A stretch of DNA of 64,000 nucleotides from a virus (Duplodnaviria; Caudoviricetes). Position 1 is the first letter of the stretch, and each line of letters starts with the position of its first letter. This document shows, piece by piece, positions 1 to 46,870 of this stretch. The stretch lies in IMG/VR virus record IMGVR_UViG_3300015615_000196, positions 224,001 to 288,000 of that record. The stretch is one strand, 5' to 3'. Below the pieces are notes generated by a model. The model was not told the origin of the DNA, did no database searches, and saw only the letters and a list, made by a program, of their open reading frames with translations. The translations under genes and the position numbers were made by a program.

Positions 1-1
1 T

Positions 2-739
2 GACATACTTGGTGAGTACAACGTAGATAAATACGTAGAGGCTTTCAACAAAAGAGTAAGCACGATTCTTGAGGGCTTTGATCCGAGTCTTAGAAAAATG
101 ATCTTGGTGAAGAACCCTAAGAACTGTGAACAGTTTTCAGAAAGCGAACTTCAATTGAAGAGTTTCGCTGCTGACGACTACGATGCATCAATGGTACTTG
201 AAGAAAAGGAACTGGATTTCTGGAACAGAACAGGTTTGAAGCCTTCGTCAATTTGGGATGGCTACAAGTTACCTGAACCAACTGCTCTGGATGAAATCAA
301 CGAGTACTATGAGAAGATAAATGAACTGAATGAAAAGATGAAGAACAGTTCGAGAAAACAGAAAGTGATTTCTGTTAACGATGAACTGGTTGATGACTGC
401 TTTGTACTGGCGAAGAACTACAACACGTATGATCTTTTCCACTACAAGGATAACATGTATACTGTAGTAAGAAGCAATATGTACGCTCCGCAACAAGGTA
501 CTGAATACGATTTCTTTGAGGGTGGTCTTTCAAAGAAGATGATCGAATTCAAAAGAGAAATGGCGAAGAAGTTCAAGCAAGAATTTGGTTTGCCGGAAGA
601 AAAGAAACTATCAACCATCGTAAACGATAAGGGAGAATTAAGAGGACTTATTATGTTTGAACAGTACATCAAGACTGAACTGGCCAAACTTGATAAGGAC
701 GATGAAGAAGAAGAGGATTCAGACGAAGATGACGATTAA
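2..739 (+). CDS. C-terminal fragment of probable family B DNA polymerase (5' partial)
   Basis: Frame is open from position 2 (DILGEYNVDKYVEAFNKRVSTILEGF...MVLEEKELDFW), resembling the thumb/C-terminus of large-phage PolB; catalytic motifs lie outside the window. Confidence 0.55.
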   Translation, partial: DILGEYNVDKYVEAFNKRVSTILEGFDPSLRKMILVKNPKNCEQFSESELQLKSFAADDYDASMVLEEKELDFWNRTGLKPSSIWDGYKLPEPTALDEINEYYEKINELNEKMKNSSRKQKVISVNDELVDDCFVLAKNYNTYDLFHYKDNMYTVVRSNMYAPQQGTEYDFFEGGLSKKMIEFKREMAKKFKQEFGLPEEKKLSTIVNDKGELRGLIMFEQYIKTELAKLDKDDEEEEDSDEDDD

Positions 740-1016
740 TTATTGCCATGTCAATCCTCAACGACTCAAACAGTTAAAATTCAAGCCAAGAGATTCAGGC
801 GAAGAAGAGGACGATGACATGATATTCATTGTCAGAGTCTATGACGAAGACGGAGGGTCTTTCGTTGATTATTATTTTGATAATCACATATCACTCTACA
901 TTTTTATGGATTCATTGGATGAAGCCGAAGTGGAGTATGATTTAATTGACGAAGACGGCTACATTATTGAAGAAGGAGACGATGAAGATTTCGTAGATGA
1001 TACGCTGCTTGATTAA
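729..1016 (+). CDS. acidic hypothetical protein
   Basis: ATG at 729 overlaps the upstream gene end; very Asp/Glu-rich. Confidence 0.6.
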   Translation: MTINYCHVNPQRLKQLKFKPRDSGEEEDDDMIFIVRVYDEDGGSFVDYYFDNHISLYIFMDSLDEAEVEYDLIDEDGYIIEEGDDEDFVDDTLLD

Positions 1017-1200
1017 TGCAACAAAACTCAAAAATTGGACACTCCGAAAAGAGAGAGAATTTTCTATTGTAATACACGATAGATACGGCTTATTCGGTGT
1101 GTATTTTATGTTGGCACAACTTCGTGTAGCGTACCCAACATTTACTCTTCGCATCTACGACAAGAATCATAACCTGATTGACACGTTTAGGAATGCATGA
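997..1200 (+). CDS. hypothetical protein
   Basis: Short ORF coupled to neighbours; N-terminus (MIRCLINATKLK) resembles that of the next ORF (MICTVNISKLK). Confidence 0.5.
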   Translation: MIRCLINATKLKNWTLRKEREFSIVIHDRYGLFGVYFMLAQLRVAYPTFTLRIYDKNHNLIDTFRNA

Positions 1201-1400
1201 TTTGTACGGTAAACATATCGAAGTTAAAAGCCGGATTGCATTATAGATCAGTCGAAGCACAACAAAGTCGCACCTATTGGGTTGAAGTGACGGGATTTAC
1301 TACCGATCAAGAAATTCACGAATATCTTAATAAGGTTTTAAAAAAATTCAGGTCTCGTCAATGGGGTTCAGGTGAAGAGATTAATATCCCAAATCGGTGA
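1197..1400 (+). CDS. hypothetical protein
   Basis: ATGA overlap with upstream ORF. Confidence 0.5.
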   Translation: MICTVNISKLKAGLHYRSVEAQQSRTYWVEVTGFTTDQEIHEYLNKVLKKFRSRQWGSGEEINIPNR

Positions 1401-1431
1401 TGTAACTCACCGTATCCCCGTATTTATAGGT

Positions 1432-1803
1432 ATGAAAAAGAAGAAAATCATGGAAATTCTCGATTCCAATGAGGTAATCATTGGGTCTGATGATAAACCG
1501 CAGGTTGATCCTAATGCCCCTGCGCAAGCTGCTGGTACTACTGATCGTAATGCGAAAATGGGACACCAGCCGTTTGATGATAAATTTTGGGGTACGTTCG
1601 GATTCAGTCTGTACGAAGAACTGACGGAAGATCAGATGCTTCAAATTGCAGAAGATATTATCGCCAAGCGTACCGATAAGTCAATCAAACCAAAAAAAGA
1701 GGACAAGTCAGAAATAGTAAACAAGGTTGAAAGAATCAAGGAATTGTTTGCTGATTTGTCGGATACCGAAAAGGGTGATCTGATCAGCAAGTTAAAGAAG
1801 TAA
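1432..1803 (+). CDS. hypothetical late protein
   Basis: ATG 4 nt after TATTTAT (1421-1427); internal LYEELTE motif. Confidence 0.65.
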   Translation: MKKKKIMEILDSNEVIIGSDDKPQVDPNAPAQAAGTTDRNAKMGHQPFDDKFWGTFGFSLYEELTEDQMLQIAEDIIAKRTDKSIKPKKEDKSEIVNKVERIKELFADLSDTEKGDLISKLKK

Positions 1804-2618
1804 TGAATAGTCAATTATACGGTGAAGGAAGGCATTACAACATTCCGCGAGACATACTGGTCAGAATCCAATCAAAACTTTTCTCCAATCAAAGTGGAGG
1901 TAGTGAAGGAGCAAAGAGAGCCAAGAATCTTGTGAAGATGGGTTATTGCACATACCCAATGCTCAAGAGACTCAAGAATTTTTTCGACTACTGTGATCCC
2001 AAAGCACAGGCAGGACAATTTGAACTGGCAGGAGGTGAGCCAATGCGTCAATTCGTAGAGCGCACACTTCAATCAGAAAGAGCCAGAACAAACAACAACA
2101 ATCAAACCAACGTTGTATCAATGCCACCTTCGGCATTCGATCCAACATTGAATCTAAGCAAGACTCCGAGAATGAACGTGAACGAATCGGAGGTCAAAGG
2201 AAAGAAACCTCGTGGTGCTGTGGCAGTAATCGTCAACGAAGACGGTAAGGTGCTCATTGTAAAACGTTCTCCCAAAGGTGGCTGGATGCCCGGTAAACAC
2301 GCTTTAGTCGGAGGGGGAATAGAACAAGGGGAAGAACCAATTGATGCAGCCAAACGCGAAGTAATGGAGGAAACGGGGCTTAAATTGGAGCATTTCGTAG
2401 ACTCGTTCAACATCCTGACTCCCCCTGAAACTGTAGACTATGCATTCGTGGCAAAAGCCCCGGAAAAGTGTGATGTTGTCTTAAATGACGAGCATACTGA
2501 ACACGGATGGTACGGACTTGATGAAATTGAGAAGCTGGATGGCGTTCCGATGCTCAAGGACTGTGTCGAACTGGCACTAAATAAAATGAAGGAAAAGGGT
2601 ATTTATGGAAAGCGTTAG
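1803..2618 (+). CDS. NUDIX hydrolase with N-terminal unknown domain
   Basis: Nudix box GGGIEQGEEPIDAAKREVMEETGL; VNE motif at the domain junction. Confidence 0.9.
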   Translation: MNSQLYGEGRHYNIPRDILVRIQSKLFSNQSGGSEGAKRAKNLVKMGYCTYPMLKRLKNFFDYCDPKAQAGQFELAGGEPMRQFVERTLQSERARTNNNNQTNVVSMPPSAFDPTLNLSKTPRMNVNESEVKGKKPRGAVAVIVNEDGKVLIVKRSPKGGWMPGKHALVGGGIEQGEEPIDAAKREVMEETGLKLEHFVDSFNILTPPETVDYAFVAKAPEKCDVVLNDEHTEHGWYGLDEIEKLDGVPMLKDCVELALNKMKEKGIYGKR

Positions 2619-2773
2619 TTGTGTTAAAGACTTCCGCTATGGAATGAAACGCAAAGGTGAGGTTTCGACCAATAGGATAATTATTTGCTATTATGGCAAA
2701 TGTTGGGGCACTCGCTAAATTTTTGTAAAAAAATGCATAACTAAGAAATAATTTAATTAAATTTGTCAAAACT

Positions 2774-3034
2774 ATGCCAAAGCAAAATGGAAAAGAAATT
2801 GGTTTGTTAGCGTACAGTACATCGTTCTTGAATCGTGAGACTGTAAGAAACCGTTACAAAACAACTGACGAATACCGTGCTGGTCACCCTGATGCAAAGT
2901 CAGATGGTGATGAACTTGGTAAAGGAGAAAACAATGGACAAATTGGTGGTAAGACTGACATCGTTCAGAGAAAAGTTTCTCAAGCAAGAAACTTCTTCAC
3001 GCCAAACAATCCATACGATTCTTCAAAGGTATAA
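2774..3034 (+). CDS. hypothetical protein
   Basis: ORF with A-rich leader. Confidence 0.65.
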   Translation: MPKQNGKEIGLLAYSTSFLNRETVRNRYKTTDEYRAGHPDAKSDGDELGKGENNGQIGGKTDIVQRKVSQARNFFTPNNPYDSSKV

Positions 3035-3061
3035 CCTTATTGATGGTGGAACTACATCATA

Positions 3062-3721
3062 ATGAGCAATGAGAAAAGGGTCATTATCGATACGAACGAT
3101 CTCAAACGACACGTTAAGAATTTTCGTAGCGAACCTAACCTGTTAAAAGAATGGGTTAGTCGTGACACTGTTGCCGATGCAATAAAGAACAAGGATGTAG
3201 TGTTCATTTACTATGCTGGTGACGACACAGTAAACAAAGGGTATCGTACAATCGAACCTTATGTGCTTGGTCGTACTAAAGCAGGTAATCTTGCCGTTCG
3301 TGCTTGGCAACAAGCAGGTGCTACGGACAGAGGACAAAATCCATCACGTAAAAATGACGAAATCCCCGGATGGAGATTATTCCGTTTAGACGGAATCACT
3401 TCAATGGTGAAGACTCTGAGAAAGTTTGAAGCTGATCCAGAGTATCTTCGTACCCATCGCCCACACTACAATCCAAAAGATTCTCAAATGGGAGAGATCA
3501 TTTTGGCTGTCGAACCAATGGAAAAAGGACAGACAACAATGAGTGGTGATACTTCGATTACGAAGCCAGATGTGAAGATCACACAGCCAACGGGATTCTT
3601 CAAAAATCAAGCGGACAAATTTAGAAATTTCTTTAGAAAGCCTTCCGACTTTTCAAGTTCATGGATCGAAAGTCAAAAGAGACTGTTCAAAGAATTAATT
3701 AAGCGTAAAAAGGAAGAATAA
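3062..3721 (+). CDS. stand-alone WYL-domain protein
   Basis: IYYAG...RTIEPYVLG...VRAWQ...GWRLFRLDGI matches the WYL pattern (R-x-IEP; WR-x-FR-x-D-x-I). Confidence 0.8.
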   Translation: MSNEKRVIIDTNDLKRHVKNFRSEPNLLKEWVSRDTVADAIKNKDVVFIYYAGDDTVNKGYRTIEPYVLGRTKAGNLAVRAWQQAGATDRGQNPSRKNDEIPGWRLFRLDGITSMVKTLRKFEADPEYLRTHRPHYNPKDSQMGEIILAVEPMEKGQTTMSGDTSITKPDVKITQPTGFFKNQADKFRNFFRKPSDFSSSWIESQKRLFKELIKRKKEE

Positions 3722-3722
3722 T

Positions 3723-4511
3723 ATGCCTGAGCAACTCGTAAAATTCGATCTCAACAAATTAAAGAGCGACATCGATTCACGTAAGAAAGAACAGAACACT
3801 AAACAAGTAGTGTTGGGAAATGTGCCGGAAGGTGCAATCCAGAAGAAAGGAAAAAAACAATTCCTCAATGAATTGGTTACATCAATGCACACTGGTGTAA
3901 GAACCAGTGCAAGTGAAGCGATCAAAGCTGTTAATGAAACAGTTGAAATGAAGAAGGGTGCGCCACAAGCTGTTGCAAAAAACAACGCCAACAAATACAT
4001 CCCATCAAGAACAATCGTAAATGAAGAAGTTGCACCACAACCAATACAAAGAAGAACTGGTGCTGATGATTGGGGCATGGGAGGCAATGGTGCTCAACCA
4101 GATATGAGATATAGATCACAGGGCGATGAACGTGAAATGCAATTCGAAAATGCTTTCCAAAAACAAAACGCAGACTTTGATCAGATGATGATGGCGGGAT
4201 ATGCAAACAATCCGGCATACATGAAGATGATGCAAGAAAGAGGCCAGCAACCAGTACAATCGTACAAGCCTCAAGTTATTGCAGAAGGTTCGCTCAATGA
4301 ACAAGTTGAATTACTCAACGAGAAAATGGAGCGTAACATGGAGAAGTTGGTAGAGTCAACCTTCAAGAATGTTTTAACCAACATCTACACCAAAGAAAAA
4401 ATCCAAGAATCACTTGTAGAGTTCCTTCAAACCGATGAAGGTTTGAAAGTTGTAAGTCGCGCAATCAACGAAATTGCCAAGCGCAACAAGGCGAAACAAC
4501 AGGGAAAATAA
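3723..4511 (+). CDS. hypothetical protein, possibly internal head protein
   Basis: Coiled-coil/low complexity with several hydrophobic-x-E motifs (VNEE, IAEG, LNEQ, LNEK). Confidence 0.65.
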   Translation: MPEQLVKFDLNKLKSDIDSRKKEQNTKQVVLGNVPEGAIQKKGKKQFLNELVTSMHTGVRTSASEAIKAVNETVEMKKGAPQAVAKNNANKYIPSRTIVNEEVAPQPIQRRTGADDWGMGGNGAQPDMRYRSQGDEREMQFENAFQKQNADFDQMMMAGYANNPAYMKMMQERGQQPVQSYKPQVIAEGSLNEQVELLNEKMERNMEKLVESTFKNVLTNIYTKEKIQESLVEFLQTDEGLKVVSRAINEIAKRNKAKQQGK

Positions 4512-4526
4512 AGTATTTATCCCTAT

Positions 4527-7490
4527 ATGGGAGATACAAATTGTCCTAAACTTGACCCTAAACTTTATAGTCAAATTTTAGAGAAGTGCCTTACTTCTCT
4601 CAATTTGCCTATTGAGTACTCTTTAATCGGTGGTCGTACCTGCGGGAACGCCTACTTGAGTCATGGACGAGTCTACAAAGTAACGACCGACAAATCAGAA
4701 GCAGTCGAATCCAACAAAGTAGTTGGAAAGAACAACTCCCACTTAGTTGACGTATATAACGTCAAGAAAATCAACACCGATCTTACTCCTGAAAGCGTAT
4801 ACCTGATTGTAATGGAATACGTGAACACAGGGAAGCAAAGCATTTTCGCTGAGATTCAGGAAAACTTAATTAATCTTTTCCGTGAACACCTGAACTTGCA
4901 TCTTTTTGATTTGCTCGAAGCATACAGATTCAAACCTGAACAATATGCTGCATACGAACCAGACGTGAAAGAGGCATTGGCTCCACATCAAAAGGAAACA
5001 CTGTACTACAATACTCTTCTTGAAATTCTCGATGAACTTAAAGCCAACGGTGTCGAATCAATTGATGTCCATTACCACAACTTAGGCGTGAAGCAGAATG
5101 GTAATATTGCATTCTTTGATTTCGGATTTGGTGACGAGCAGGGAGAGGTTGATTCAATGGGTGTTAATGAGAAGGTAGAGTTGGATGAAGAAATCAAGCA
5201 ACTTTATGACGCATTGGGAAAGAACGGTATTTCACTTCAAGACTTTGCAATCAAATTGAGTGACAGACTTGGGTTTGAGGGTGCAATGATGCTTGGTAGT
5301 GGAACACAAGGTGCAGCAATTGATGTTGGTGGTGGTACTGTTATGAAAATCACAACTGACAACGGAGAGGCAAGTGAGGCAAATCATTTGGTTGGTAAAA
5401 ACAACCAGTACATAGGAAACGTATTTAAGGTTTACAAACTTGACCCTCCATACAATTTCGCATACGTCATCTTGAGAGAAAAACTTAAAGTGGATTCTCA
5501 AGAAAACAGTAGAAGAGAAAAGGTCTTTGAGAAGGTGATGGATGATAACGACATCAGTTGGTTCACATTCGATGAAATCATCATGAGAGGCAACAAGCAA
5601 GAACTTGAAGAAACCAGAGATTCATTAAGAATCAGAAACAACGCAGACATTGAAGTTGTTGATGCATTTTTTGCTGTCTTTGGCAACCTGATTGACAATG
5701 GTATCAAGAGCACAGACTTCGCACCAAACAATTTTGGTTTTAAAAACAATGGTGCATGGGCCTACTACGATTTAGGATATAGTTCAAATCCAGAAGACTT
5801 GGGTGGTGTCGAAGGACTTGCAGTGAACGAGCGTGTAGTATCTTACATGCCAAATTCATCAGCAATGAGTGTCAAGAAGAAGTGTCAAATCGGTGGCAAC
5901 GGTGACGGAACAAGTAGTGCTTGCAATCAAGGAGATATTTCGAATATCAAGCTGAATAAGATAAGTGAGCACACGAGCAAATGGAAACAAAGACTTGAAA
6001 AGAAGCAACAAGTTGAGGAAAATATGTTTTATCGTGTGCCGTCAGGCTTCACCCCGCCAAGGGGAACAACTGCACTTGACGTAGTAAATTTTGAGAGAAA
6101 TGAAAACGGCAATGTTGAAGAAATGGATATTGCACTTGAAAATGCCAAAAAGCATGGAATTGATCTTGCAAAATATCCGGCAAGTAGCGTAATTTGGGTC
6201 ACCAAAACACCGGAAGACGCAATGAGATACGGGAATGACGTTGAAGAAGAACCAATTGAGAATCCGATCATATTGACTACGGATGGTGATAATGGATATT
6301 TGGTGTTTAGAAAAGAAGGAATGATTGCAGAAGAGCAAAAAGTTGAAATCAACGATCTACCATTCAAAGGTGATGTGGAAGCTGCTGGCGGTAAAATTTA
6401 CTCTGTCGGTGGGGCTGTTCGTGACTCTATTCTTGGTAAGGAATCAAAAGACTTGGACATATTGATCACCGGACTACCACTTGATCAACTCGAAACCATT
6501 CTTTCAAAGTATGGTCGTGTCGATAACGTAGGAAAATCATTCGGTATCATCAAATACAACTCTCCGCAGACCGGAGAAATTGACATCGCAATTCCTCGTA
6601 CAGAGAGAAAGAACGATCAAGGTGGGTATCAGGGTTTCGATGTAACTTCTGATCACAATCTACCAATTGAGAAAGACCTTGAACGTAGAGACTTTACGAT
6701 CAATGCCATTGCAAAAGATAGTTCTGGCTTGATGATCGACCCTTACGGTGGACAAGGTGATATTCAGAAGAAACAGATTAAGATGGTGAACCCACAAGCC
6801 TTCTCTGACGATCCGTTGAGAATGCTTCGTGCTGTACAATTTGCATCGCGTTTTGGATTTTCGATTGAACCGGAGACACTGGCATCGATTCAACAGAATG
6901 CATCTAAGATCAGAGAGATTTCTCCTGAAAGAATCTTGATTGAGTTTGACAAAATTGTGAAGAAAGGTAATCCGATGGTCGGAGCAAAGTTGCTTCGTCA
7001 GACAGGATTGTACAATCAAATTTTTGGTGTTGACAGAGGTGTGAACTTCGCTCCTTTCGATCATGTGAAGACAATGGGAGAATTCGTGTTCTCTCTGATC
7101 AAGGACAACATTCAAAATCCTGCTGAGTACTTCAAGGATCATATGAAAGGAGACCTTGACACGTACAACAACATTCGTGCACTGGAACTTGGTAACAAGT
7201 TCAACGGAGACAAGAAGACAATCTTCGATATGTACAAGATTTATCCACAGTCTTTGAACACGGACTTGTTTGGCCCAAAGTTTAAGGATACGGTGGAGTA
7301 TATGAAGGCGAAAAACATACCGTTTTCGTTAAAAGAGGTTCCGGTAAACGGAAACGATTTGATGTCATTGGGCTTCCAAGGTAAAGAAATCGGTAATGCC
7401 TTCGTAAATGTGTTAAACAAGATTTACAGCGAAGAATTGCCCAATAATCGTGAGGATATTCTCAATTACGTGAAGACCCTTAAAGTTTAA
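4527..7490 (+). CDS. cca: polyprotein: two kinase-like domains + Cys module + ART-like module + CCA-adding tRNA nucleotidyltransferase
   Basis: Kinase motifs YKVT..E/DVHYHN/DFG and GSGTQG/MKIT..E/DFAPNN/DLG; class II NTase motifs VGGAVRD, DLDI, PRTERK, RRDFTINA, DDPLRMLR, SPERI. Confidence 0.85.
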   Translation: MGDTNCPKLDPKLYSQILEKCLTSLNLPIEYSLIGGRTCGNAYLSHGRVYKVTTDKSEAVESNKVVGKNNSHLVDVYNVKKINTDLTPESVYLIVMEYVNTGKQSIFAEIQENLINLFREHLNLHLFDLLEAYRFKPEQYAAYEPDVKEALAPHQKETLYYNTLLEILDELKANGVESIDVHYHNLGVKQNGNIAFFDFGFGDEQGEVDSMGVNEKVELDEEIKQLYDALGKNGISLQDFAIKLSDRLGFEGAMMLGSGTQGAAIDVGGGTVMKITTDNGEASEANHLVGKNNQYIGNVFKVYKLDPPYNFAYVILREKLKVDSQENSRREKVFEKVMDDNDISWFTFDEIIMRGNKQELEETRDSLRIRNNADIEVVDAFFAVFGNLIDNGIKSTDFAPNNFGFKNNGAWAYYDLGYSSNPEDLGGVEGLAVNERVVSYMPNSSAMSVKKKCQIGGNGDGTSSACNQGDISNIKLNKISEHTSKWKQRLEKKQQVEENMFYRVPSGFTPPRGTTALDVVNFERNENGNVEEMDIALENAKKHGIDLAKYPASSVIWVTKTPEDAMRYGNDVEEEPIENPIILTTDGDNGYLVFRKEGMIAEEQKVEINDLPFKGDVEAAGGKIYSVGGAVRDSILGKESKDLDILITGLPLDQLETILSKYGRVDNVGKSFGIIKYNSPQTGEIDIAIPRTERKNDQGGYQGFDVTSDHNLPIEKDLERRDFTINAIAKDSSGLMIDPYGGQGDIQKKQIKMVNPQAFSDDPLRMLRAVQFASRFGFSIEPETLASIQQNASKIREISPERILIEFDKIVKKGNPMVGAKLLRQTGLYNQIFGVDRGVNFAPFDHVKTMGEFVFSLIKDNIQNPAEYFKDHMKGDLDTYNNIRALELGNKFNGDKKTIFDMYKIYPQSLNTDLFGPKFKDTVEYMKAKNIPFSLKEVPVNGNDLMSLGFQGKEIGNAFVNVLNKIYSEELPNNREDILNYVKTLKV

Positions 7491-7509
7491 AAATCACGTA
7501 TTTATTAGC

Positions 7510-8307
7510 ATGGAGAAAGAGAACATCTATAAGCCGAAGTCATTACCACAGTTGTCAGCACCGTTTAGCTACGTTGCTCACCACTTGAATGACATGGGTC
7601 AACCCTATGAATTGGTAGGTGCGAACGTAGATTCTATCACTCCGTCACAGGCGTTTATTGATACGGACATCGTAAGCAATCTGGTGGACAAATTGAAGAA
7701 AGGCGAAGAACTCAAGGCAATTTGGTTGGACAAAGACAACAATGCTCTTGATGGTCACCACAGATATGCAGCGTATGCTCTCAATAAGAATAGCCATATC
7801 CCATCCGTAAGATTGGGTTGTGAAAAGCAAAAGGCAATTGATATTTTGAACGAGATTCAGTCGATGTACGAGAGAGAAAACGGTTCTCAATTCTTGAACG
7901 CATTGACAGAAGATCAAGATACTTCAATGTACATCCCGGACAAGAAAGTGCCTACGAAGAAGGCTACGGTGAAAGGATATAGAAAGAACAAGATCGTAGA
8001 GAAGTCCATCACTGGTAACTTCTTTGCATTGAAACCTGTGGAAGGCTACAAACTCGAAACAGAAATCGAATTCTCGTCACTCATGAATTCGGACGATGTA
8101 AATCCGAGTATTAAGGACGACAAGAATCCTCCGGCTGCTCTTGCAAAAGAGTGGTTCCCGTCTTTGAATTTCAAAGAAAAGGCAAAGATGATGGGCATGA
8201 AAGAAGAGCAATTCATCAATGCTATCGTAGCTGAAAAAGCAAGAACGAAGGGCATCGATGGTATCCAATACGGAGACAAATTACTTCAATCAATTGACGA
8301 CAAATAA
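7510..8307 (+). CDS. ParB/sulfiredoxin-like domain protein with C-terminal possible ART-like domain
   Basis: ITPSQ...IWLDKDNNALDGHHR is ParB-N-like; C-terminal YR...GNFFAL...GIDGI. Confidence 0.65.
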   Translation: MEKENIYKPKSLPQLSAPFSYVAHHLNDMGQPYELVGANVDSITPSQAFIDTDIVSNLVDKLKKGEELKAIWLDKDNNALDGHHRYAAYALNKNSHIPSVRLGCEKQKAIDILNEIQSMYERENGSQFLNALTEDQDTSMYIPDKKVPTKKATVKGYRKNKIVEKSITGNFFALKPVEGYKLETEIEFSSLMNSDDVNPSIKDDKNPPAALAKEWFPSLNFKEKAKMMGMKEEQFINAIVAEKARTKGIDGIQYGDKLLQSIDDK

Positions 8308-8316
8308 CACAACGAT

Positions 8317-8673
8317 ATGTCATACTACAGAATTAGAAACAACACCAACACTCTCGGCAAAAGACACCCAAGATTCAACACGCCTCAAATAATTGAGTTT
8401 AAAGACCTTTTGGAGAACAATGAGGTAAGTGTCGCCCCTTCTACGGAAATCATCGTAGAGACCGCCTATTTGCCTGTATCAGCACAAAAGCTGAGAGCCG
8501 AAGGATTGATCACCATTGTGGAGATCGATAAGCAGACGTACCACAAACTGCGTAAAAACAAAGAAACGCAACTTGCTGAGGAAGCAAAGAATGCAGCTAT
8601 CGTAGAGCAGGAAATAGCTAAAGTAGCAAAATCTGAGGAAAGAAGCAAGAAATACGCTACAAAACTTAAATAA
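8317..8673 (+). CDS. hypothetical protein
   Basis: ORF in operon context. Confidence 0.7.
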   Translation: MSYYRIRNNTNTLGKRHPRFNTPQIIEFKDLLENNEVSVAPSTEIIVETAYLPVSAQKLRAEGLITIVEIDKQTYHKLRKNKETQLAEEAKNAAIVEQEIAKVAKSEERSKKYATKLK

Positions 8674-8757
8674 TAAAATTTTGTAAATTTTTACAGTTTT
8701 TTCCGATTTTCGGAGAAGTGAGTCCGTATTTATAATAAACTATAAATTATTATAACT

Positions 8758-10140
8758 ATGGACGAAAAAATCAAAATCCTGTTTTTCAACAAAGACGTTG
8801 CTGGTGTAAACTATTGGAGAACGCTTACTCCGGCAATGCAATTGGACATGTCACATTCTGACAAGTTCAAAGTGGAAATCAACCCGGACTTAAACTTCAA
8901 CAACTACGATGAAGTTCTCAACTATCTCAAGGGCTTCCACATCATCCACTATCACCGTTACATTTTACCGAACGTCACACAGACGGTTCAGCTTGCCCGT
9001 GAACTGAAAAAGAACGGAACAGTTCTTATCATGGACATAGATGACTACTGGTTACTTGACCGTACTCACCCGATGTATCCTACTGCCTTCGAAAAGAAGT
9101 TGCACTTTGACATCATCGACAACTTGAAGATCGCGGACTACGTAACCACTACGACTGATTTGTTTGCTTCTGAGATCAGAAGAATTACTGGTAAGGACAA
9201 CGTAATGGTATTCCCGAACTCGGTGAATCCTGAATGGATGAAACAATTTCAAGACAACAAAATCGTTGACGAAAAATTTGTACGTATCATGTACATGGCG
9301 GGTTCTTCTCACAAGAATGATATTCAGCAACTTGATGGCGTGGCAAACGCATTGAACTCAACTCTTGGTGTTCAAGATCAATTCAAGTTCCTTCTTGCAG
9401 GTTGGGACACGGAAGGTCATACGACCGATTTCAAATTCAATCAGGAATTTGCAACTGTGTTACAGAAGAGAAGATTGTGGGACAAAAAAATGATCAAACA
9501 AATCAACAAAACCAGAGGTGATGTTGATAAGATTGAAGGTCTTCCTGCCGACATTCGTAATGCGTTCAGAGGAAGAGTTTTTGATGTAAATGAACGTGCG
9601 ATTCACTCAACCGAATCAGTGTACCTTGACTATGAAAAGATGCTCACGGACAATTATCGTGTGATCAAAAATCAAGACTATTTGACTTGGTTGAATAAAT
9701 TTGAACGTGATAAGTATGCCGATGCTGCACTTGTAAATTACGAGAGAAGATGGACGCAGAAGGCGAATATCTACGCTCAGGTTCTTGACGAAGCCGACAT
9801 TTCTCTTGCTCCACTTGCAGACAACACATTCAACAGAATGAAGTCTAATTTGAAGCAGGTGGAAGTTTGGTCACGTAAGCTGCCGATCATCTGTACTGAC
9901 ATTCCACCGTACAACGTGGACGGTAAGCACATGAAAAACTGTATTCTTATTCCTTGGAAGAAACACAATGACAAGGAGTGGTACAAGGCAATCAAAACTT
10001 TGATCAAGGAGCCGAATCTCCGTGCTGATTTGGGTAACCAACTGTACGAAGATTTCAAGGTCAAGTATAACCTGAAACACGTAACAGAGGCCAGAGCGCA
10101 ATTCTATTCTACCGTAGCCACTATTTATCATTTAGTATGA
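8758..10140 (+). CDS. GT-B (GT4-like) glycosyltransferase
   Basis: MDIDDYW, ADYVTTTT, PNSV, DISLAPLADNTFNRMKSNLKQVE...PIICTDIPPY. Confidence 0.85.
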   Translation: MDEKIKILFFNKDVAGVNYWRTLTPAMQLDMSHSDKFKVEINPDLNFNNYDEVLNYLKGFHIIHYHRYILPNVTQTVQLARELKKNGTVLIMDIDDYWLLDRTHPMYPTAFEKKLHFDIIDNLKIADYVTTTTDLFASEIRRITGKDNVMVFPNSVNPEWMKQFQDNKIVDEKFVRIMYMAGSSHKNDIQQLDGVANALNSTLGVQDQFKFLLAGWDTEGHTTDFKFNQEFATVLQKRRLWDKKMIKQINKTRGDVDKIEGLPADIRNAFRGRVFDVNERAIHSTESVYLDYEKMLTDNYRVIKNQDYLTWLNKFERDKYADAALVNYERRWTQKANIYAQVLDEADISLAPLADNTFNRMKSNLKQVEVWSRKLPIICTDIPPYNVDGKHMKNCILIPWKKHNDKEWYKAIKTLIKEPNLRADLGNQLYEDFKVKYNLKHVTEARAQFYSTVATIYHLV

Positions 10141-10161
10141 TCTTACTAATTGATAATCAGT

Positions 10162-10602
10162 ATGGACTATGAATACATTAGATATTTGATGCTCTACACG
10201 GATCAAAAGTATCCGTTTGAAATGGCAAAATCCGATCCGGGATTAGCCGAAGGTTTGCGAAGTGTCAACACCTACATGGCGAAAAATGGTAGAAGAAAGT
10301 TGACCGATGCAGAAGCTGGACGCATCCTCATGACGGAGAGAACGATAAGAAGACAAGTTCGTGATATAGACAGAGACTACGAACCGGGTGATCAAGCACC
10401 AGTGGCAGCACAACCGCCACAGAAGACACAAGCAGACCTTGAAAGTGAATTGGCTTTATTAAGAAAGGCAATTCAGGAAAAGGAAGCTGAACTCAGAAAC
10501 AGTGCCGTTCACAAGATTAGTTCTCCGACACAAACAAAAGGTGATAGTGGTATCATCGAACGTAACTTAAAAGACACTGGATACAGTGACAAAATAAATT
10601 AA
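10162..10602 (+). CDS. hypothetical protein
   Basis: ATG 10162 downstream of TATTTAT at 10122. Confidence 0.6.
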   Translation: MDYEYIRYLMLYTDQKYPFEMAKSDPGLAEGLRSVNTYMAKNGRRKLTDAEAGRILMTERTIRRQVRDIDRDYEPGDQAPVAAQPPQKTQADLESELALLRKAIQEKEAELRNSAVHKISSPTQTKGDSGIIERNLKDTGYSDKIN

Positions 10603-10606
10603 CACA

Positions 10607-11107
10607 ATGAGTAACTTTTTGACCCGTTTAAAAGAAAGTCTTGACACAGGAAAACAGGACGACCAATTGAAATCACAGATGGAGGAAACTTTGGCTAATG
10701 CCGATAAGTATGGTTCAGGAGATTTTAGTGCACTTGAAAAGAAAGCAGAAGCTGCTGTTGCCAAAAGAAAACCTTTGACCCCGGAAGAGATTGCCAAGAT
10801 AAACGAAGAAGCCGCAGCACATCAAAAACGCATTGATGAATTTGATGCAAAGATGAAAGAACTTGCAAAGTTGAAACTTGCAGAACAAGATGCGCAACAA
10901 AAAGAGTTGGAAGCAAAACAAGAACCGTTTGTGTTGTTGAATGTTGTTAAGAAGGAGGTTCTTAATCCACCAACAGAAGGAGTGAGTGAACTTGTACTAC
11001 AGGATAGTACTGGTAAACCAATAACGAGCGATCAGCTTTTCGATAAGTATGATTATCCCAAGAAAGAGGATACTAAGTTAGAAGAGAGCAATGATAAATT
11101 GGTTTAA
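10607..11107 (+). CDS. coiled-coil hypothetical protein
   Basis: Charged helical ORF in operon. Confidence 0.65.
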   Translation: MSNFLTRLKESLDTGKQDDQLKSQMEETLANADKYGSGDFSALEKKAEAAVAKRKPLTPEEIAKINEEAAAHQKRIDEFDAKMKELAKLKLAEQDAQQKELEAKQEPFVLLNVVKKEVLNPPTEGVSELVLQDSTGKPITSDQLFDKYDYPKKEDTKLEESNDKLV

Positions 11108-11963
11108 AAGGCTATTTGCATCAGCCACACTATCACTATTCTTTGCTCTCAAACGTGTTGATGATGAACTTCGTGCTGACCCAATCGATTTGTTCAAAAC
11201 AGAACATCGAGCGGAGATCAGAAGTATATTCGAGCGTTTTGATGAAAAGTATGTTGAACGTTTCTATGAGATTTTAAAGAATGCCGACAAGTTCTTACGA
11301 ACAGCAAATCCCGCCAAGATTCAAAGGGCAGCAGGTAAGTTCGGATTGAACTACGGTATGAAGGATCATCATGGAAGACGCTTTGAACACTACGGCTTCT
11401 TTGACGAGAAGCATAGGTTCGCAGGTAAATCACTGAAAGAAGTTCGTGATTTGGAAGTTGCAGAAAAACAAGTGCAGGATGACGATTATCCGGTAATCGT
11501 GATGTATCAGAACAAGAAGGAATTCTCGTTTAATGAAAGTGCAGCAATGGTTCTTTTCAACAAGAGAGGATTATTTGCACCGGAGATTCACGAACTGGCA
11601 AGAATGAAGAAGTATCCTTTACTTGTAGTAAGAGATAAAGTTGTTGCAAACAGAATCGAGCAGTTGACCGAGTATTTGCACGTAAAGCAGATCACCAGCC
11701 AACACAAGATTCTCGAATTCATGATACCAAAGAAATTCGGACTTGAAAAAATTGAGGACAGTGATCCAATATTCAAAGAGTTGATCAACATCGATCAGGT
11801 GTGGTTTAAGGATGAATATGGTGATCGCAACTCATACAAGGTTCAAGAATTCTTTAAGCGCAGTGAGCACAATAAATTTAAACCGGATGGTGAACTCAAT
11901 CCTCACGGATATGACGTAATAAAATTCAAGGCTACCGACATAATTGAAATGGGTAGACCGTAA
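11091..11963 (+). CDS. hypothetical protein
   Basis: 290-aa ORF, coupled. Confidence 0.7.
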   Translation: MINWFKRLFASATLSLFFALKRVDDELRADPIDLFKTEHRAEIRSIFERFDEKYVERFYEILKNADKFLRTANPAKIQRAAGKFGLNYGMKDHHGRRFEHYGFFDEKHRFAGKSLKEVRDLEVAEKQVQDDDYPVIVMYQNKKEFSFNESAAMVLFNKRGLFAPEIHELARMKKYPLLVVRDKVVANRIEQLTEYLHVKQITSQHKILEFMIPKKFGLEKIEDSDPIFKELINIDQVWFKDEYGDRNSYKVQEFFKRSEHNKFKPDGELNPHGYDVIKFKATDIIEMGRP

Positions 11964-11985
11964 CATTAAATCAAACACAATATTT

Positions 11986-12387
11986 ATGGACGCACAAGAT
12001 CACACAATTCAGGGAGGATCGTTGACAGCACAGAACCATACTCACTTTCATCACAACAACGCGAATGCAGTTAATTTTGTGCATGTAGGAGACGGTAGTT
12101 GGGGCACATCAACATCAAGTTGGGAACCCTATGGTGAGAAGAACGTAGTTGATGTAAAAGTCGATGATGAAACAATTGAGATCACGTATATTCAACGTGC
12201 ACTCTATTCGTACACGACAATCAACAGTAGTTTCACTATCGGTGGCCCTCAGCAAAGTTACCACAACCCTGACAGAGTGTTCAAGGAAGTTTACGGTGTG
12301 AAAGATGGCAAGTTAACATTGGTGAAAACCATTCAAGGACGTGTTATTCCACCACAGCCGAACGAAACTTATGAATTTGATGAATAG
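11986..12387 (+). CDS. hypothetical protein
   Basis: Probable ATG at 11986 overlapping a TATTTAT motif. Confidence 0.6.
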   Translation: MDAQDHTIQGGSLTAQNHTHFHHNNANAVNFVHVGDGSWGTSTSSWEPYGEKNVVDVKVDDETIEITYIQRALYSYTTINSSFTIGGPQQSYHNPDRVFKEVYGVKDGKLTLVKTIQGRVIPPQPNETYEFDE

Positions 12388-12420
12388 TAGTTGTTTTCTC
12401 GTTTAGTTTTAGTTTTTTCG

Positions 12421-12448
12421 AAAAATCCGCTTAAAAAACGGATTTTTT
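12421..12448 (+). terminator. intrinsic terminator
   Basis: AAAAATCCG-loop-CGGATTTTTT. Confidence 0.6.
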
Positions 12449-12467
12449 GTATTTATAGAAAATACTT

Positions 12468-12875
12468 ATGCCAGCCATCAATATCAAATTTCCTCTTGAA
12501 GATGACGTTGAAAAGAACGTGCTGTTCAAGCAGAACAATGTATCGAAAGATGCCCTTGTTTCCAACTTGCTTTTGTTGCTTTTGACCGATGAAGGGGAAA
12601 GATTTTACATGTCCGACTATGGTATCAATCTCAGAAAATACATATTCGAACCAAAGGATGGCGTAACCGAAGCAGAAGTCACAGAAGAGATTAAAACAAG
12701 AGTAAGACAATTCATTCCGCAGCTTACCATCAATAGAGTACAGTTTTTCCATGCGGAGGAAGATCAGGACGGTAATCCACTTATGGAAAATGAGGTTAAC
12801 GTCCATATTGACTTCACCTACGGTAGTGATGTGTTCAGCGATACAGGTAGCGTAGAGATAACATTTCCAGCATAA
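12468..12875 (+). CDS. baseplate wedge protein, gp25/GPW-like
   Basis: NLLLLLLTDEGERFYMSDYGINLRKYIFEP is the gp25 signature. Confidence 0.85.
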   Translation: MPAINIKFPLEDDVEKNVLFKQNNVSKDALVSNLLLLLLTDEGERFYMSDYGINLRKYIFEPKDGVTEAEVTEEIKTRVRQFIPQLTINRVQFFHAEEDQDGNPLMENEVNVHIDFTYGSDVFSDTGSVEITFPA

Positions 12876-12887
12876 TAACAGATAGCA

Positions 12888-14741
12888 ATGGCAGATCAAA
12901 TTTCATTCAATAAACGTACTTTCACCGAATATCGTGACGAATTGGTTTCGATGATAAGAGAAATGTATCCAGAAGTATTCACAGACTTCACGGATTCAAG
13001 CGTTGGTTCAATGCTTATTGATTTGAACGCAGGTGTTGCGAACAATCTCTCAGTAAATACCGACAGAGCATTTCAAGAAACACAACTTGAAAATGCACAA
13101 CAAAGACAATCAATTCTCAACATAGCAAAAAACTTGGGATTCAACATACCGGGTAACCGTGCATCGGTAACTGTAGTTGATTTCAGCGTACAAGTTCCAG
13201 TAAGAGGCGACAGACCAAACGAAACTTACCTTCCGGTTATTCAGGCAGGTGCACAAGTATCGGGTGGTGGGAAAATTTTCGAAACCTCAGATGCTATCGA
13301 CTTCAATAGTGCATTCAGTATCTTAGGCGATCCGAACAGAGCAGAGAGTCCAAACTTTGATGGTAACGGTATTATTCAAAGCTATACAATTACAAAGAGA
13401 GAAGTAGTACTTAATGGTGCTACCAATATTTTCAAGAAGATTATTACCGATACCGAAGCAGCACCATTCTATTCGTTGTTGCTTCCTGACAGTGATGTAT
13501 TAGAGATTACATCAATCATTCTTTTGCCGGGAACAAACTATTCTGGCAATCCAACTGACGCAGATTTTTCAAATCCAGATAACAGATACTATGAAGTTGA
13601 TTATTTGATTCAGCAACGAGTGTTTGTTGATGATCCTAATGGTGGAACAACAAATGCAACGACTGGTGGCACAGGTATCAGAGCAGGAAAGTGGATGGAT
13701 GTCACCAAGAAATTCATCAAGGAATTTACGAGCGCAGGTTTATGCAAAGTAACGTTCGGTGGTGGTAATGGCGATCTTGATTTCTTTTTGGATGGTTTTG
13801 CAAAGGCCGGAGTAACCAACCAGCAATTCTTAAATAACTATTTGCTCAATACATCATTGGGTGAGAAGTTGAAAAAAGACTACACGTTATTCGTAAGATA
13901 TAGAACGGGTGGTGGTACATCATCAAACATTGGTTCAAACGTACTTAGCAGCGTTGGTAATATCAACATGATCATCAACGGGTCAAGAGACGACTTCAAT
14001 AAGCAAGTACGTAGAAGTTTAAGAGTGAACAACCCAATTCCTGCAATTGGTGGTAATGATGGGTTGAGCATCGAACAGATTAGAAATTTGATCAAGTACA
14101 ATTTCAGTTCTCAATTTAGAGACGTAACAATCAATGACTACTTGTTCCAAGTGTACAAAATGCCGGGTAAATATGGCTCACCTTTCAGAGCAAATGCTTT
14201 CAAAGAAAATAACAAGGTGGTTATTTCAATCATTGGAAAGAACAGTGATAATACATTGAACAACACCAGCAACACATTACTACAAGAAAACATTACAGAG
14301 TACTTAACAGAATTCCGTATGGTTAATGATTACGTTGAAGTGCGAAATGGTCAAATATTCAATCTTGCATTAACTTTCGACATCTTCATAGCTGATTCAG
14401 CTAATCAAGGTGAATTGGCAAACAATGTCATTCAAACCGTAAGTGCCTACTTCGATGTAAACACCACCCAAATGAATGAAGACATTTTCTTGGGTGATCT
14501 TTTAAACTCGATAAATGACATCAATGGTGTAATCAACATCATTTCGTGCAAGGTCTTCAATAAAGTCGGTAACGGTTACTCGTTAAACGAAATTGGTCAG
14601 GAATATGTGGATGAAACAACAAAAGAAATCAAATTGATTAACAATACTGTCTACAGTAGTGAAGATTCAATGTTTGAAATCAAGTATCCTCAAAAGGACA
14701 TTGTATTATATCTAAGAAAGAAGACTGACTTATTTAAGTAA
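12888..14741 (+). CDS. baseplate wedge subunit (T4 gp6 / baseplate J-like)
   Basis: DFTDSSVGSMLIDLNA, ETQLENAQQRQSILNIAKNLG, AIGGND..SIEQIR, RDVTINDY; follows gp25. Confidence 0.8.
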   Translation: MADQISFNKRTFTEYRDELVSMIREMYPEVFTDFTDSSVGSMLIDLNAGVANNLSVNTDRAFQETQLENAQQRQSILNIAKNLGFNIPGNRASVTVVDFSVQVPVRGDRPNETYLPVIQAGAQVSGGGKIFETSDAIDFNSAFSILGDPNRAESPNFDGNGIIQSYTITKREVVLNGATNIFKKIITDTEAAPFYSLLLPDSDVLEITSIILLPGTNYSGNPTDADFSNPDNRYYEVDYLIQQRVFVDDPNGGTTNATTGGTGIRAGKWMDVTKKFIKEFTSAGLCKVTFGGGNGDLDFFLDGFAKAGVTNQQFLNNYLLNTSLGEKLKKDYTLFVRYRTGGGTSSNIGSNVLSSVGNINMIINGSRDDFNKQVRRSLRVNNPIPAIGGNDGLSIEQIRNLIKYNFSSQFRDVTINDYLFQVYKMPGKYGSPFRANAFKENNKVVISIIGKNSDNTLNNTSNTLLQENITEYLTEFRMVNDYVEVRNGQIFNLALTFDIFIADSANQGELANNVIQTVSAYFDVNTTQMNEDIFLGDLLNSINDINGVINIISCKVFNKVGNGYSLNEIGQEYVDETTKEIKLINNTVYSSEDSMFEIKYPQKDIVLYLRKKTDLFK

Positions 14742-31928: not shown

Positions 31929-31975
31929 TTAATCGCGTTTTGTTTCTGTATTTATAAAGAAACAGAGACGAAACA

Positions 31976-34900
31976 ATGAGCAATAATCGAAGTGCTTTTG
32001 AGGCAATTCCGGGTAAGGATGCGCTTGTAGAATATCAAAACAAAGCATATCCCGCAAAATCATACGTGGAAAGGGATGGTTTGGTTTACAAGTCGTTGAC
32101 CGGAACATCAACCACATTCCTAAGTACACAATGGGAATTAATCGCTGACTTACGTGAAGTAAGAGTTGCAAATATCAAGGATCGTAATGCCTTGACTGGC
32201 TATACAGCCACTACTGGTACAACAGGTATTCGTATTCCAATTCTGGATAATACCAATGTACTTGTGTTAAATGCTGCTGGCGATCCGCAAGTTGGGGTTA
32301 ATAATTTTGCTCGTTACAATTATAATCAAACAACTACAAGCTGGCTTCTATTGCAAGTTGGCACTGGTGCAACAAATTCGAATGTAAATAACTATCAATT
32401 ACTTACAAATAAACCTGCTGTTGTCAGTGGAGTCACTGTCACGGCTGGTAATGGTTTAACTGGTGGAGGAAGTGTGTTCGGTACAGCATCTGCGCCCTAT
32501 GCTGCTGGTGGTACAATTAATGTTTCACATGCTGACACATCTTCGCAAGGAAATATCGTAGGTTCAGGATATGCATATATTCAAACCTTACGTTTCGATA
32601 CTTTTGGCCACGTAACCGGAGCAACTTCAAGTACATGGGTTCATCCAACTGGATTAACACAAAATTTTTCAAACACAGGATACACGTACATTCAAAGTGT
32701 TCAAGTTAACAACGGACACGTTACAAGTGTAAGTCCTTCAACATGGGTTCACCCGGATACCTCAACACAGGCCAATTCAGTAAACTCTGGAAATGTTTTC
32801 ATTCAAAGCATTTATGTTGATGGTGCTGGTCACGTAACAAATATCACAACTGGTACGGCTGGTGGTGGAGGTGGTGGTGGATCACCACTTAAAGTTAATG
32901 GTGATAGTGGTGGTTTGATTACCATGAATAGTGGTGGTACGTTAACCATTTCAGGTGGAACAAACATTGCAACTGTAAGAACAGGTAACGTAAACAATAC
33001 AGGCATAAGAATAAACCTTAATCCGGCAGGTACAACAAATCAAGTACAATACAATAGTGGTTCTGGCTTGGGTGCAAGTGCAAACTTTGTATTCAGTGCT
33101 GGCACAAGCACGTTGAGATCAAGTAACTACGTAGTAGGTTCAACGCCAACATCTGGTACTACATCAGATCAAATACTTACAAGAAATTCTGGAAGTGGTG
33201 CTGTACAAAGATTAAGTATCAATACAGTTTTAGCACAATTAGCGGTAAACAATGGTCTTACCAAGAGTTTTAACAATGTTAGATTAGGTGGAACACTCAC
33301 TGGTAACACATCAATTGCCGGAGCATTTGGTCTTAATCTTACGGCTGGTTATTTAACTGTAGGTGCACGATCAGGTAGTACTGGAACGAATTCATTAAGT
33401 ATTGGTCAAGGCAATTTAGTTAGTGGGCAATATAGTGCATCATTTGGTGCATCTAATAAAGCTACTGGTCAATATGCCATAAGTTCAGGGGCAAATTCAG
33501 AAGCGACTGGTGATCAGAGTTCAGCATTTGGTTGGGGAGCAATTGCATCCGGTATGGGCGCACATGCATCTGGCTTCGGTAATGGTGTTGGTAAAGGAGT
33601 GCTTGCACAAGGAAACTTCTCATTTAATCATTCATTTAATCACAACGTAAATCAAACTGCTGGTCATGGTGCACTTGCAGACGCATCAGCAATTCTTGGT
33701 GGTCGTGATCATAATATTGATGCAACAAATACAAATGCAGCAATTGTTGGTGGTGACACAATTAAATTACCTGCTGGTTATGGTAACTTTACTGCCGTAG
33801 GTAATCTCGCAATTTGGACAGCACCTGCAACAAATAACACGGACGATCTTCTTGTATATAATGCAACAACGAAGAAAATTGAGAAAACAACCAGAGCATC
33901 TATTGTGGGTGGTGGTACACCGCCAGCAGGATCGAATACACAGGTTCAATTTAATAATAGTGGTGCGTTTGGTGCATCTGCTAATCTAACGTTCACAACT
34001 GGCACAAATACTTTGTTGTCAACAAACATTAATGTTGGTACAACACTTACCTTAGCATCTAACCCTGCATCTGGTACAACAGGAGACCAAATACTTACAA
34101 GAAATTCTGGTACTGGTATCGTACAAAGATTATCATTAAGTGCAATTGCTGGACTTCCATTAAATGCAATACAATATAGAACTGTTACCGGATTCGGTGG
34201 TGACGCAAATTGGATTTTTGATCCAACAAATGATGCGATCACTTTAGGTACAAGAGCGGGTGGTACTGTGGGATTAAACAGTGCAACATTTGGTACAAGC
34301 AATCTTGCTTCTGGTGCAACATCTTTTGTTGTTGGTACAAGTTCAATTGCTGGCGCAAATGCGATTGCAATGGGTGTGTCGGTCACAGCAACGGGTCAAT
34401 ATTCGTCTGCATTTGGTCAACAAACTGTTGCAAGCGGACAATATTCATTTGCAGAAGGTGTTGGTAGTGTCGCTTCCGGTGGATTTGGTTCACATGCAGA
34501 AGGTACAAGAACAACTGCAAGTGGTAATGCTGCTCACGCAGGTGGTTATGGACAAAATGCAACATTAACACTTCTCGCATCTGGCTTTGCTGCATTCAAT
34601 CACTCACAGACAACGCCATCACAAACAACTGGTCATGGTGCATTAGCAAACGGATCAGCAATTCTTGGTGGACAAGATCATAACATTGCAGTTGGTAATA
34701 CTAATGCGGCAATTATTGGTGGCACAGCAATTAAGTTAACTGGCACAACATACATTGATCATACAGCAGTTGCAAATTTAGCAATCATGTCAACGCCTGT
34801 AACTGGTATTGCTGCGGATGATGTTCTTGTAAGAAGTTCGACAACAGGCAGAATCAGAACAGTAACTCAAGCATCATTAAGTGGTGGTGGAGGTGGTTCA

Positions 34901-44236: not shown

Positions 44237-44264
44237 GTTTTTTGCTTATTATTACTGTACCTAT

Positions 44265-44290
44265 TTATACGTAAAACCGTGTTGAAGGTT
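44265..44290 (-). promoter_or_regulatory. ECF-type promoter AAC-N16-CGTATAA (minus strand), overlapping a plus-strand TATTTAT
   Basis: Reverse complement reads AAC-CTTCAACACGGTTTTA-CGTATAA. Confidence 0.7.
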
Positions 44291-44955: not shown

Positions 44956-44981
44956 AATAGTATTTATAAAAAACTATAGCA

Positions 44982-46654: not shown

Positions 46655-46870
46655 ATGCTTAACGAAGAGTTTACCAAGGTCGAAATCAGAAAAATTGTCA
46701 ATGATGAACTTGATAAAGCCATGAGAGACAAGCTGAAACGTGAAATTGTGGCATCTTTGAAGAGCGGTGCAGGTAGAGGGGAAGTGAACGATATTGTGAA
46801 AAACGGACTCAATGCACTCTATAAGTTCCTCTGGACTAAGCGTAGTAGCTGGAACAACGAAATAAAGTAA
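46655..46870 (+). CDS. small late protein
   Basis: Follows TATTTAT at 46638; begins MLNEEF. Confidence 0.65.
   Translation: MLNEEFTKVEIRKIVNDELDKAMRDKLKREIVASLKSGAGRGEVNDIVKNGLNALYKFLWTKRSSWNNEIK

Follow-up and report, generated by a model that had tools for sequence, protein, structure and literature searches.

The window analysed here, a 64,000-nucleotide stretch of viral DNA (Duplodnaviria; Caudoviricetes), covers bases 224001-288000 of a 362,603-bp IMG/VR virus record (IMGVR_UViG_3300015615_000196) that bears direct terminal repeats, is rated 100% complete and belongs to a jumbo phage. A single uninterrupted open reading frame (ORF; 4527..7490, plus strand) encodes a polyprotein of 987 amino acids plus stop (P0001; 113 kDa), in which two kinase-like domains (K1 and K2), a small Cys-loop module (LNK), a basic spacer, a conserved alpha/beta domain (MID) and a class II tRNA nucleotidyltransferase of the CCA-adding type (CCA) follow one another, i.e., K1-K2-LNK-spacer-MID-CCA. 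This layout is repeated on independent contigs, the kinase-linker-MID-CCA architecture being found again in P0004 (5 contigs, from at least two sequencing runs) and in P0002. An assembly artefact, considered as a possible origin of the fusion in a first-pass annotation made from the sequence alone, can thus be rejected, because nothing interrupts the ORF and its architecture is met again on independent contigs and sequencing runs. The search for this architecture in related phages, which that annotation had proposed, also located it at a conserved position upstream of baseplate genes. Within the phage database, no record spans more of the polyprotein than its CCA part, and no second copy of the kinase domain, of the Cys-loop (present once in the genome) or of the class II nucleotidyltransferase was found in the rest of the genome.

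Modules of the polyprotein

K1 (amino acids 1-215; 4527..5171, +) and K2 (amino acids 216-435; 5172..5831, +) align with each other over ~190 residues (33-217 and 255-437; 27% identical, BLASTP E 2e-16), which bears out the two paralogous kinase-like domains that the first-pass annotation had placed at about 4527-5150 and 5200-5800. K1 includes a Gly-loop, Lys51, Asp180/Asn185 and Asp198, and ends in V-N-E; K2 has the same catalytic residues (profile match E 3.4e-49) and ends in V-N-E followed by R. Across an alignment of 100 kinase domains, G40, K51, N185 and D198 are invariant, and G37, E58 and D180 are conserved in at least 90%, with D180, in the catalytic loop, nearly invariant. The catalytic set (Gly-loop, ATP Lys, C-helix Glu, catalytic Asp..Asn and Mg Asp) is retained by K1 and K2 alike.

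Both ABC1 (15.7 bits, cut-off 22.9) and Pkinase (11.7 bits, cut-off 31.7) score below the Pfam gathering threshold, so that membership of the kinases rests on fold and motifs. The AlphaFold2 (AF2) model of the kinase domain has a predicted local distance difference test (pLDDT) score of 94.6, Foldseek returned 188 kinase matches to it at E ≤ 1e-3 (top matches with probability 1.0), and all of the top 50 VIA structure matches (50/50) are kinase-fold proteins. The N-terminal modules therefore model as a kinase fold, with the catalytic residues kept in both. Since the domain stops ~20 residues beyond the Asp equivalent to that of DFG, most of the substrate-binding C-lobe is missing. K1 and K2 are minimal protein-kinase-like domains with intact catalytic residues, and such a kinase, of 215 amino acids, may be one of the smallest protein-kinase-like domains that are catalytically complete.

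In the 46-amino-acid Cys-loop (amino acids 436-481; 5832..5969, +), five residues are invariant (2 Cys, 2 Gly and 1 Ser). Its mean column identity is 54%, vs. 31% for the kinases, in a set of proteins with just ~30% identity between their kinase domains; the small Cys/Gly module picked out by eye is thus real, and its conservation more striking than was first realised. A profile of the Cys-loop only recovered at least 270 protein clusters (E ≤ 1e-5), from contigs of up to 371 kb. Both edges carry a hydrophobic-x-Glu motif, the first reading hydrophobic-x-E-R (E in 56/61 members) and the second I/L-x-E/D (E in 46/61 and D in 11/61), and several family proteins stop precisely at the second edge motif. 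Pfam holds no family for this module, the only matches being to Ribosomal_S14 at chance level (E 0.03, 5/61 members), and its AF2 model, computed from a shallow alignment, is disordered (pLDDT 40-50). Next comes the basic "HTSKW" spacer (amino acids 482-498; 5970..6020, +), with V-E-E at its end; in 7-8 close relatives, this spacer (about 17-18 residues), flanked by hydrophobic-x-Glu motifs, occurs at differing junctions.

MID (amino acids 499-602; 6021..6332, +) ends in I-A-E. Its core (amino acids 499-597, ~100 residues; pLDDT 85-94) is a discrete domain with 11 homologues, including a stand-alone protein of 114 amino acids. Arg, Asp and Glu are frequent among its 19 invariant positions, a composition suggestive of an enzyme. 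No match was obtained against Pfam (E ≤ 10) or PDB profiles, and BFVD returned nothing, which leaves MID as an enzyme-like fold without relatives found.

The first-pass annotation had tentatively read this FYR...WVTKT module as an ADP-ribosyltransferase (ART). A discrete, conserved domain of ~100 residues does stand there, but its identity as an ART lacks any Pfam, hhalign or significant fold match. When aligned by hhalign, MID reached 5.6% probability with the bona fide ART-PolyVal domains found in relatives and 0.1% with T4 Alt, so that it is supported neither as an ART-PolyVal nor as an Alt-like domain. The best Foldseek matches are at E 0.85 or worse (i.e., E of about 1 only; probability ≤ 0.16), although these weak matches are enriched in ART folds (KptA/Tpt1, SdeA, Certhrax, TreX, ExoS and cholera toxin A1). 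The idea of an ART is not absurd, because in relatives this slot is occupied by a true ART-PolyVal domain. Outside the window, ART-PolyVal matches part of a 371-amino-acid open frame below threshold (17 bits, E 1.5e-3; G000:33738-33884), and this frame may be a separate ART-like gene of the phage.

The C-terminal CCA module (amino acids 603-987; 6333..7487, +) combines a head, an RNA-binding and a tail domain and has no HD domain. Its head matches Pfam PolyA_pol (PF01743, 80 bits, cut-off 23) and its RNA-binding domain PF12627 (61 bits, cut-off 22), and the module as a whole matches PHROG 2244 ("tRNA nucleotidyltransferase," 4.7e-66). The class II nucleotidyltransferase announced by the first-pass annotation is thus present, starting at residue ~603 (nucleotide ~6333) rather than at about 6340. 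Its preference for a CCA-adding over a poly(A)-polymerase type was also upheld: the best NCBIfam model is NF009814 (Bacillus-type CCA tRNA nucleotidyltransferase; 163 bits, aligned over 16-393 of 396), with the pcnB model lower at 111 bits, and, when searched against solved structures, the module matches the CCA-adding enzyme of Geobacillus (1MIV, 7.6e-30) and that of Planococcus better than E. coli poly(A) polymerase (2.8e-22), which is suggestive of CCA addition. Motif A (GGAVRD and DLD), motif B (ERRDFTINA) and motif D (DDPLRMLRA) all line up with those of 1MIV, Asp replacing Glu as the first residue of motif D.

No gene of the genome other than that of the CCA module matches PF01743. The genome encodes 61 tRNAs covering all amino acids; about six of the tRNA genes have CCA at their 3' end. 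Because ~55/61 lack an encoded CCA, finishing the phage's own tRNAs is the simplest and most economical job for the module, and rebuilding trimmed tRNA 3' ends is a possible, and natural, extension of it. No 2H phosphoesterase was detected in this genome, and the phage is therefore without the 2H end-healing step that its relatives fuse to the CCA enzyme. ARAGORN also reported, outside the window, a tRNA with anticodon CUA (amber-suppressor type, labelled "Pyl"; G000:299220-299292) and, near it, an odd tRNA-like gene with a two-base anticodon call; the ORFs of the window read normally under table 11.

Family order and genomic neighbourhood

An exhaustive HMMER search with amino acids 1-620 of the polyprotein matched 752 cluster representatives at E ≤ 1e-3, and module order was counted in 245 collected proteins. 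Exactly one Cys-loop was found in 176 of the 182 loop-bearing proteins; relative to it, 200 kinase domains lie upstream and 6 downstream, and 87 CCA domains downstream and 1 upstream. Similarly, of the 68 long proteins that were retrieved by the loop only, 43 include a kinase and 39 a CCA enzyme. The order is thus fixed across the family, with at least one minimal kinase, one Cys-loop, swappable enzyme modules and a class II CCA enzyme. The slot held by MID in P0001 is taken in relatives by an ART-PolyVal and/or a 2H/Acb1-like domain, as seen from the layouts K-LNK-MID-CCA (P0004), K-K-LNK-2H-CCA (P0005), K-LNK-ART-PolyVal-2H-CCA (P0011 and P0013) and K-K-LNK-2H (P0003), and further relatives have versions with GNAT domains. 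The 2H domains of these relatives also match the model of the anti-CBASS protein Acb1. In databases, the loop-bearing proteins are named only "CCA tRNA nucleotidyltransferase," "GNAT" or "hypothetical."

Two close relatives and a more distant one share the gene order around the polyprotein: a NUDIX gene, three small genes, the polyprotein and, kilobases further on, a gp25-like baseplate gene and a wedge gene. The window shows this same order, from the NUDIX gene (1803-2618) to the baseplate wedge gene (12888-14741). In L004 and L005, too, three small genes separate the NUDIX hydrolase gene (PF00293, 69 bits) from the polyprotein gene downstream; the hydrolase may act together with the polyprotein, e.g., in removing pyrophosphate from nucleotides or RNA ends. 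The five small flanking genes (2774-4511 and 7510-8673), coding for 86, 219 and 262 amino acids upstream and 265 and 118 amino acids downstream, keep their order and size across relatives and could not be assigned to a family; their matches are a sub-threshold WYL for the 219-amino-acid protein and phrog_2859, of unknown function, for the 265-amino-acid protein. GIY-YIG/NUMOD3 homing-endonuclease genes are found in L004 (7560-8213) and are absent from the otherwise identical neighbourhood of L005, and in the distant relative (L006, 6089-6856) a homing-endonuclease gene lies directly downstream of the polyprotein. Since these genes vary between otherwise identical neighbourhoods, their presence or absence indicates traffic of mobile elements around the locus.

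The octamer TATTTATA, mostly with a G before it, is found 8 times on the plus strand of the window (1421-1428, 8727-8734, 12450-12457, 31949-31956, 44262-44269, 44961-44968, 52360-52367 and 55489-55496) vs. 2.5 expected, and 0 times in the other orientation. Most copies are located a few to ~45 nucleotides before plus-strand start codons, including that of the gp25-like baseplate gene; the copies at 52360 and 55489 are more distant from the nearest listed ORF start. A near copy also precedes the head scaffold gene. This octamer may be the late promoter of the phage, as a mirror of T4's TATAAATA, and the copy at 1421 could drive a unit containing the polyprotein, no terminator-like site having been found on the plus strand before 8727. 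Promoter and terminator scans of positions 1-13000 were at or below the expectation from shuffled sequences, and the Bacteroidota-type -33/-7 pattern was not enriched. Elsewhere in the window, very large ORFs were noted at 31976-36799 (+, 1607 amino acids, no PHROG match), 46870-51957 (+, 1695 amino acids) and 56536-59838 (-, 1100 amino acids).

Proposed processing and delivery, and competing explanations

Broadly, we consider it somewhat more probable than not that P0001 is a compact member of a large jumbo-phage polyvalent family, which would pair a CCA-adding role with takeover kinases, be cleaved in the prohead, and use its Cys-loop as a tag. On this account, the polyprotein would be made together with the baseplate genes and then enter the prohead, for which the Cys-loop, one per protein, would be the address or processing tag. 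The gp21-type protease encoded by the phage would then cut after Glu at E215, E435, E481, E498 and E602, and the products (two kinases, the MID domain and a CCA enzyme of native length) would be delivered with the DNA, like T4 Alt. K1 and K2 would serve takeover by phosphorylating proteins of the host or of the phage, in the manner of T7 gp0.7, and the CCA module would add CCA to the ~55 CCA-less phage tRNAs and could rebuild trimmed 3' ends.

As for the protease, the genome includes a Peptidase_S77 gene (genome positions 124581-125375; PF03420, 75.7 bits, above cut-off). Its product shares 33% identity with T4 gp21 (E 2e-21), and the His and Ser motifs of the two line up. The head module follows the T4 order (protease, acidic scaffold-like protein, gp23-like capsid protein), and in the major capsid protein an L-N-E stands 18 residues before the stretch that aligns with the start of mature T4 gp23. 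Cleavage after Glu at x-x-E is common to the T4, phiKZ and SPN3US proteases of this lineage, and T4 core-targeted proteins, Alt among them, are trimmed after Glu by such a protease. In the family of P0001, [LIVM]-x-E lies 8-9 residues ahead of the first conserved CCA helix in 91% of 47 polyproteins, vs. a per-position background of 2.4%. A cut at that site would place the N-terminus of the CCA enzyme about where stand-alone enzymes presumably start, as we take the Bacillus enzyme to do. Over all module boundaries, hydrophobic-x-Glu is found at 270/281 junctions, vs. 57.5% of interior windows of equal length (40 amino acids).

Given these motifs at module boundaries and the gene for a T4 gp21-type protease, it is plausible that the polyprotein is loaded into the capsid, cleaved and injected. 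From the baseplate linkage, the gp21-type protease and the boundary Glu motifs taken together we infer, as was proposed from the sequence at the outset, a protein that is late-made and possibly injected; T4-type Alt genes are also linked to baseplate genes, which fits late synthesis and head packaging (Iyer et al., 2017; PMC5512222).

Several observations pull the other way. The hydrophobic-x-Glu motif is short and common, as its frequency in interior windows indicates, and homologous junctions are not independent of each other. A T4-like N-terminal capsid-targeting sequence is not evident, residues 11-24 being a confidently folded helix of K1 in the AF2 model, and no MuF, portal or head gene adjoins the polyprotein gene. 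A CCA enzyme for tRNAs made during infection has no obvious need of injection, and, at 163 bits vs. an equivalog cut-off of 290, the exact nucleotide specificity of the CCA module rests on similarity.

Much of this would be expected if P0001 were instead an uncleaved cytoplasmic multi-enzyme, never packaged, in which fusion co-expresses or co-localises the kinases with tRNA 3'-end maturation and the Glu motifs belong to ordinary helices or linkers. We regard this as a real possibility, yet as clearly the less probable one. The ~55 CCA-less phage tRNAs do need a CCA enzyme inside the infected cell, and the missing targeting peptide, the missing head, portal or MuF neighbours and the ubiquity of the Glu motif are all compatible with a protein that stays in the cytoplasm. 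An ordinary linker feature would sit less well with a motif that is position-specific ahead of the CCA helix (91% at -8/-9 vs. 2.4%), that stands on both edges of the Cys-loop and at which some family proteins end exactly; the T4-type protease and the conserved linkage to baseplate genes, as for T4 alt, also argue for the packaged and cleaved polyprotein.

The first-pass annotation went further and saw in MID an ADP-ribosyltransferase, and in the whole protein an injected kit for ADP-ribosylating host proteins and repairing tRNA 3' ends cut by host defence. This appears unlikely to us, even though a bona fide ART-PolyVal occupies the same slot in relatives, ART folds are over-represented among the weak Foldseek matches, and hhalign pairs WVTKT..A..Y with the ART-PolyVal strand-helix "YFT..VA..Y." None of these fold or profile matches is significant, Pfam and PDB profiles are silent on MID, its ~100 residues are below the size of known ART cores, and no 2H or other cyclic-phosphate-opening enzyme was detected in the genome to prepare nuclease-cut ends.

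A third alternative, that the kinases act on RNA as tRNA 2'-OH kinases similar to archaeal ArkI, the whole protein being a machine that protects and finishes tRNAs, draws on the family-wide fusion of kinases to tRNA and RNA-end enzymes. We give it little credence: ArkI comes only 36th among the structure matches, statistically tied with ordinary protein kinases, a sequence-profile link to ArkI was not found, apparent mentions of ArkI in two papers of the Aravind laboratory (PMC7824862 and PMC9503650) proved to be the surname "Arkin" among their references, and the same kinases are fused to GNAT and ART modules or occur without any RNA enzyme. Least probable of all is a virion-delivered tRNA-protection kit that would combine ArkI-like 2'-phosphorylation of tRNAs for nuclease resistance, a KptA/Tpt1-like NAD-dependent MID, 3'-end rebuilding by the CCA enzyme and a Cys-loop acting as a novel internal cassette for capsid targeting and processing that the prohead core or the protease would recognise.

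If the polyprotein is indeed cleaved and injected, many jumbo phages would deliver ready-made kinases and a tRNA CCA-adding enzyme at infection, in relatives together with ART, 2H/Acb1-like and GNAT modules, and the T4 Alt paradigm would be extended to maintenance of the translation apparatus. The Cys-loop and the fixed polarity around it provide a testable handle on this scenario, and it is tempting to speculate that the loop may be a targeting or processing tag for loading foreign proteins into capsids.

Comparison with known systems

The polyvalent proteins of phages and conjugative elements, for which kinases, ARTs and 2H domains have been described (Iyer, Burroughs, Anand, de Souza, and Aravind, 2017; PMC5512222), are the closest parallel to P0001. 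Both unite several unrelated catalytic domains in one phage polypeptide, and the analogy drawn in the first-pass annotation is supported by at least two disparate catalytic activities (two kinases and a nucleotidyltransferase) within P0001. The repertoire of Iyer et al. is also shared with the family at large (kinase without C-terminal subdomain, ART-PolyVal, 2H phosphoesterase and GNAT), and the predicted route, through head packaging and injection, is the one proposed here. These authors define a clade of polyvalent-protein kinases that lacks the C-terminal subdomain and keeps the active site (PMC5512222), which K1 and K2, devoid of most of the C-lobe, fit by description. Unlike P0001, the proteins of that study include neither a CCA-adding enzyme (mentioned 0 times in PMC5512222) nor a Cys-loop, nor a fixed kinase-to-CCA polarity, and their genes are linked to MuF or portal genes, whereas that of P0001 is linked to baseplate genes.

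No paper was found on a CCA enzyme inside a polyvalent protein, nor any describing the Cys-loop and the polarity rule, within a searchable literature that is incomplete; this agrees with the initial impression that the fusion lacked a literature description. Stand-alone CCA enzymes of jumbo phages have been listed as RNA-repair genes (PMC7824862), and the paper on the "Jug" gut jumbo phages (PMC12880540) contains nothing on this protein.

The CCA module resembles bacterial class II CCA enzymes in its aligned motifs A, B and D and in its end-to-end match to a Bacillus-type model. It differs from Geobacillus 1MIV and E. coli Cca in being C-terminal in a polyprotein, in its sub-equivalog score and in the Asp that starts motif D. 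In addition, the multifunctional Cca of E. coli has an HD domain, which the CCA module of P0001 does not. The 2H phosphoesterase fused to the CCA enzyme in relatives parallels the HD phosphohydrolase of E. coli Cca.

For the kinases, T7 gp0.7 is a phage-encoded, Ser/Thr-type host-takeover kinase whose likeness to K1 and K2 is one of description, and Iyer et al. cite it as a precedent for kinases in polyvalent proteins (PMC5512222). Unlike P0001, gp0.7 is an early cytoplasmic protein and not part of a polyprotein.

The nearest model for the proposed delivery is T4 Alt, likewise encoded beside baseplate genes (T4 alt adjoins genes 54, 48 and 29 through 25). Alt enters the T4 prohead, where gp21 trims it after a Glu, and reaches the host by injection; the phage of P0001 has a gp21 homologue, and delivery is here a prediction. 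The two proteins have no detectable homology, and hhalign of the relatives' ART-PolyVal against T4 Alt likewise reached 0.3% probability. Alt, with its one catalytic domain and an N-terminal targeting peptide of 10 residues, contrasts with P0001, which has five modules and an internal candidate tag.

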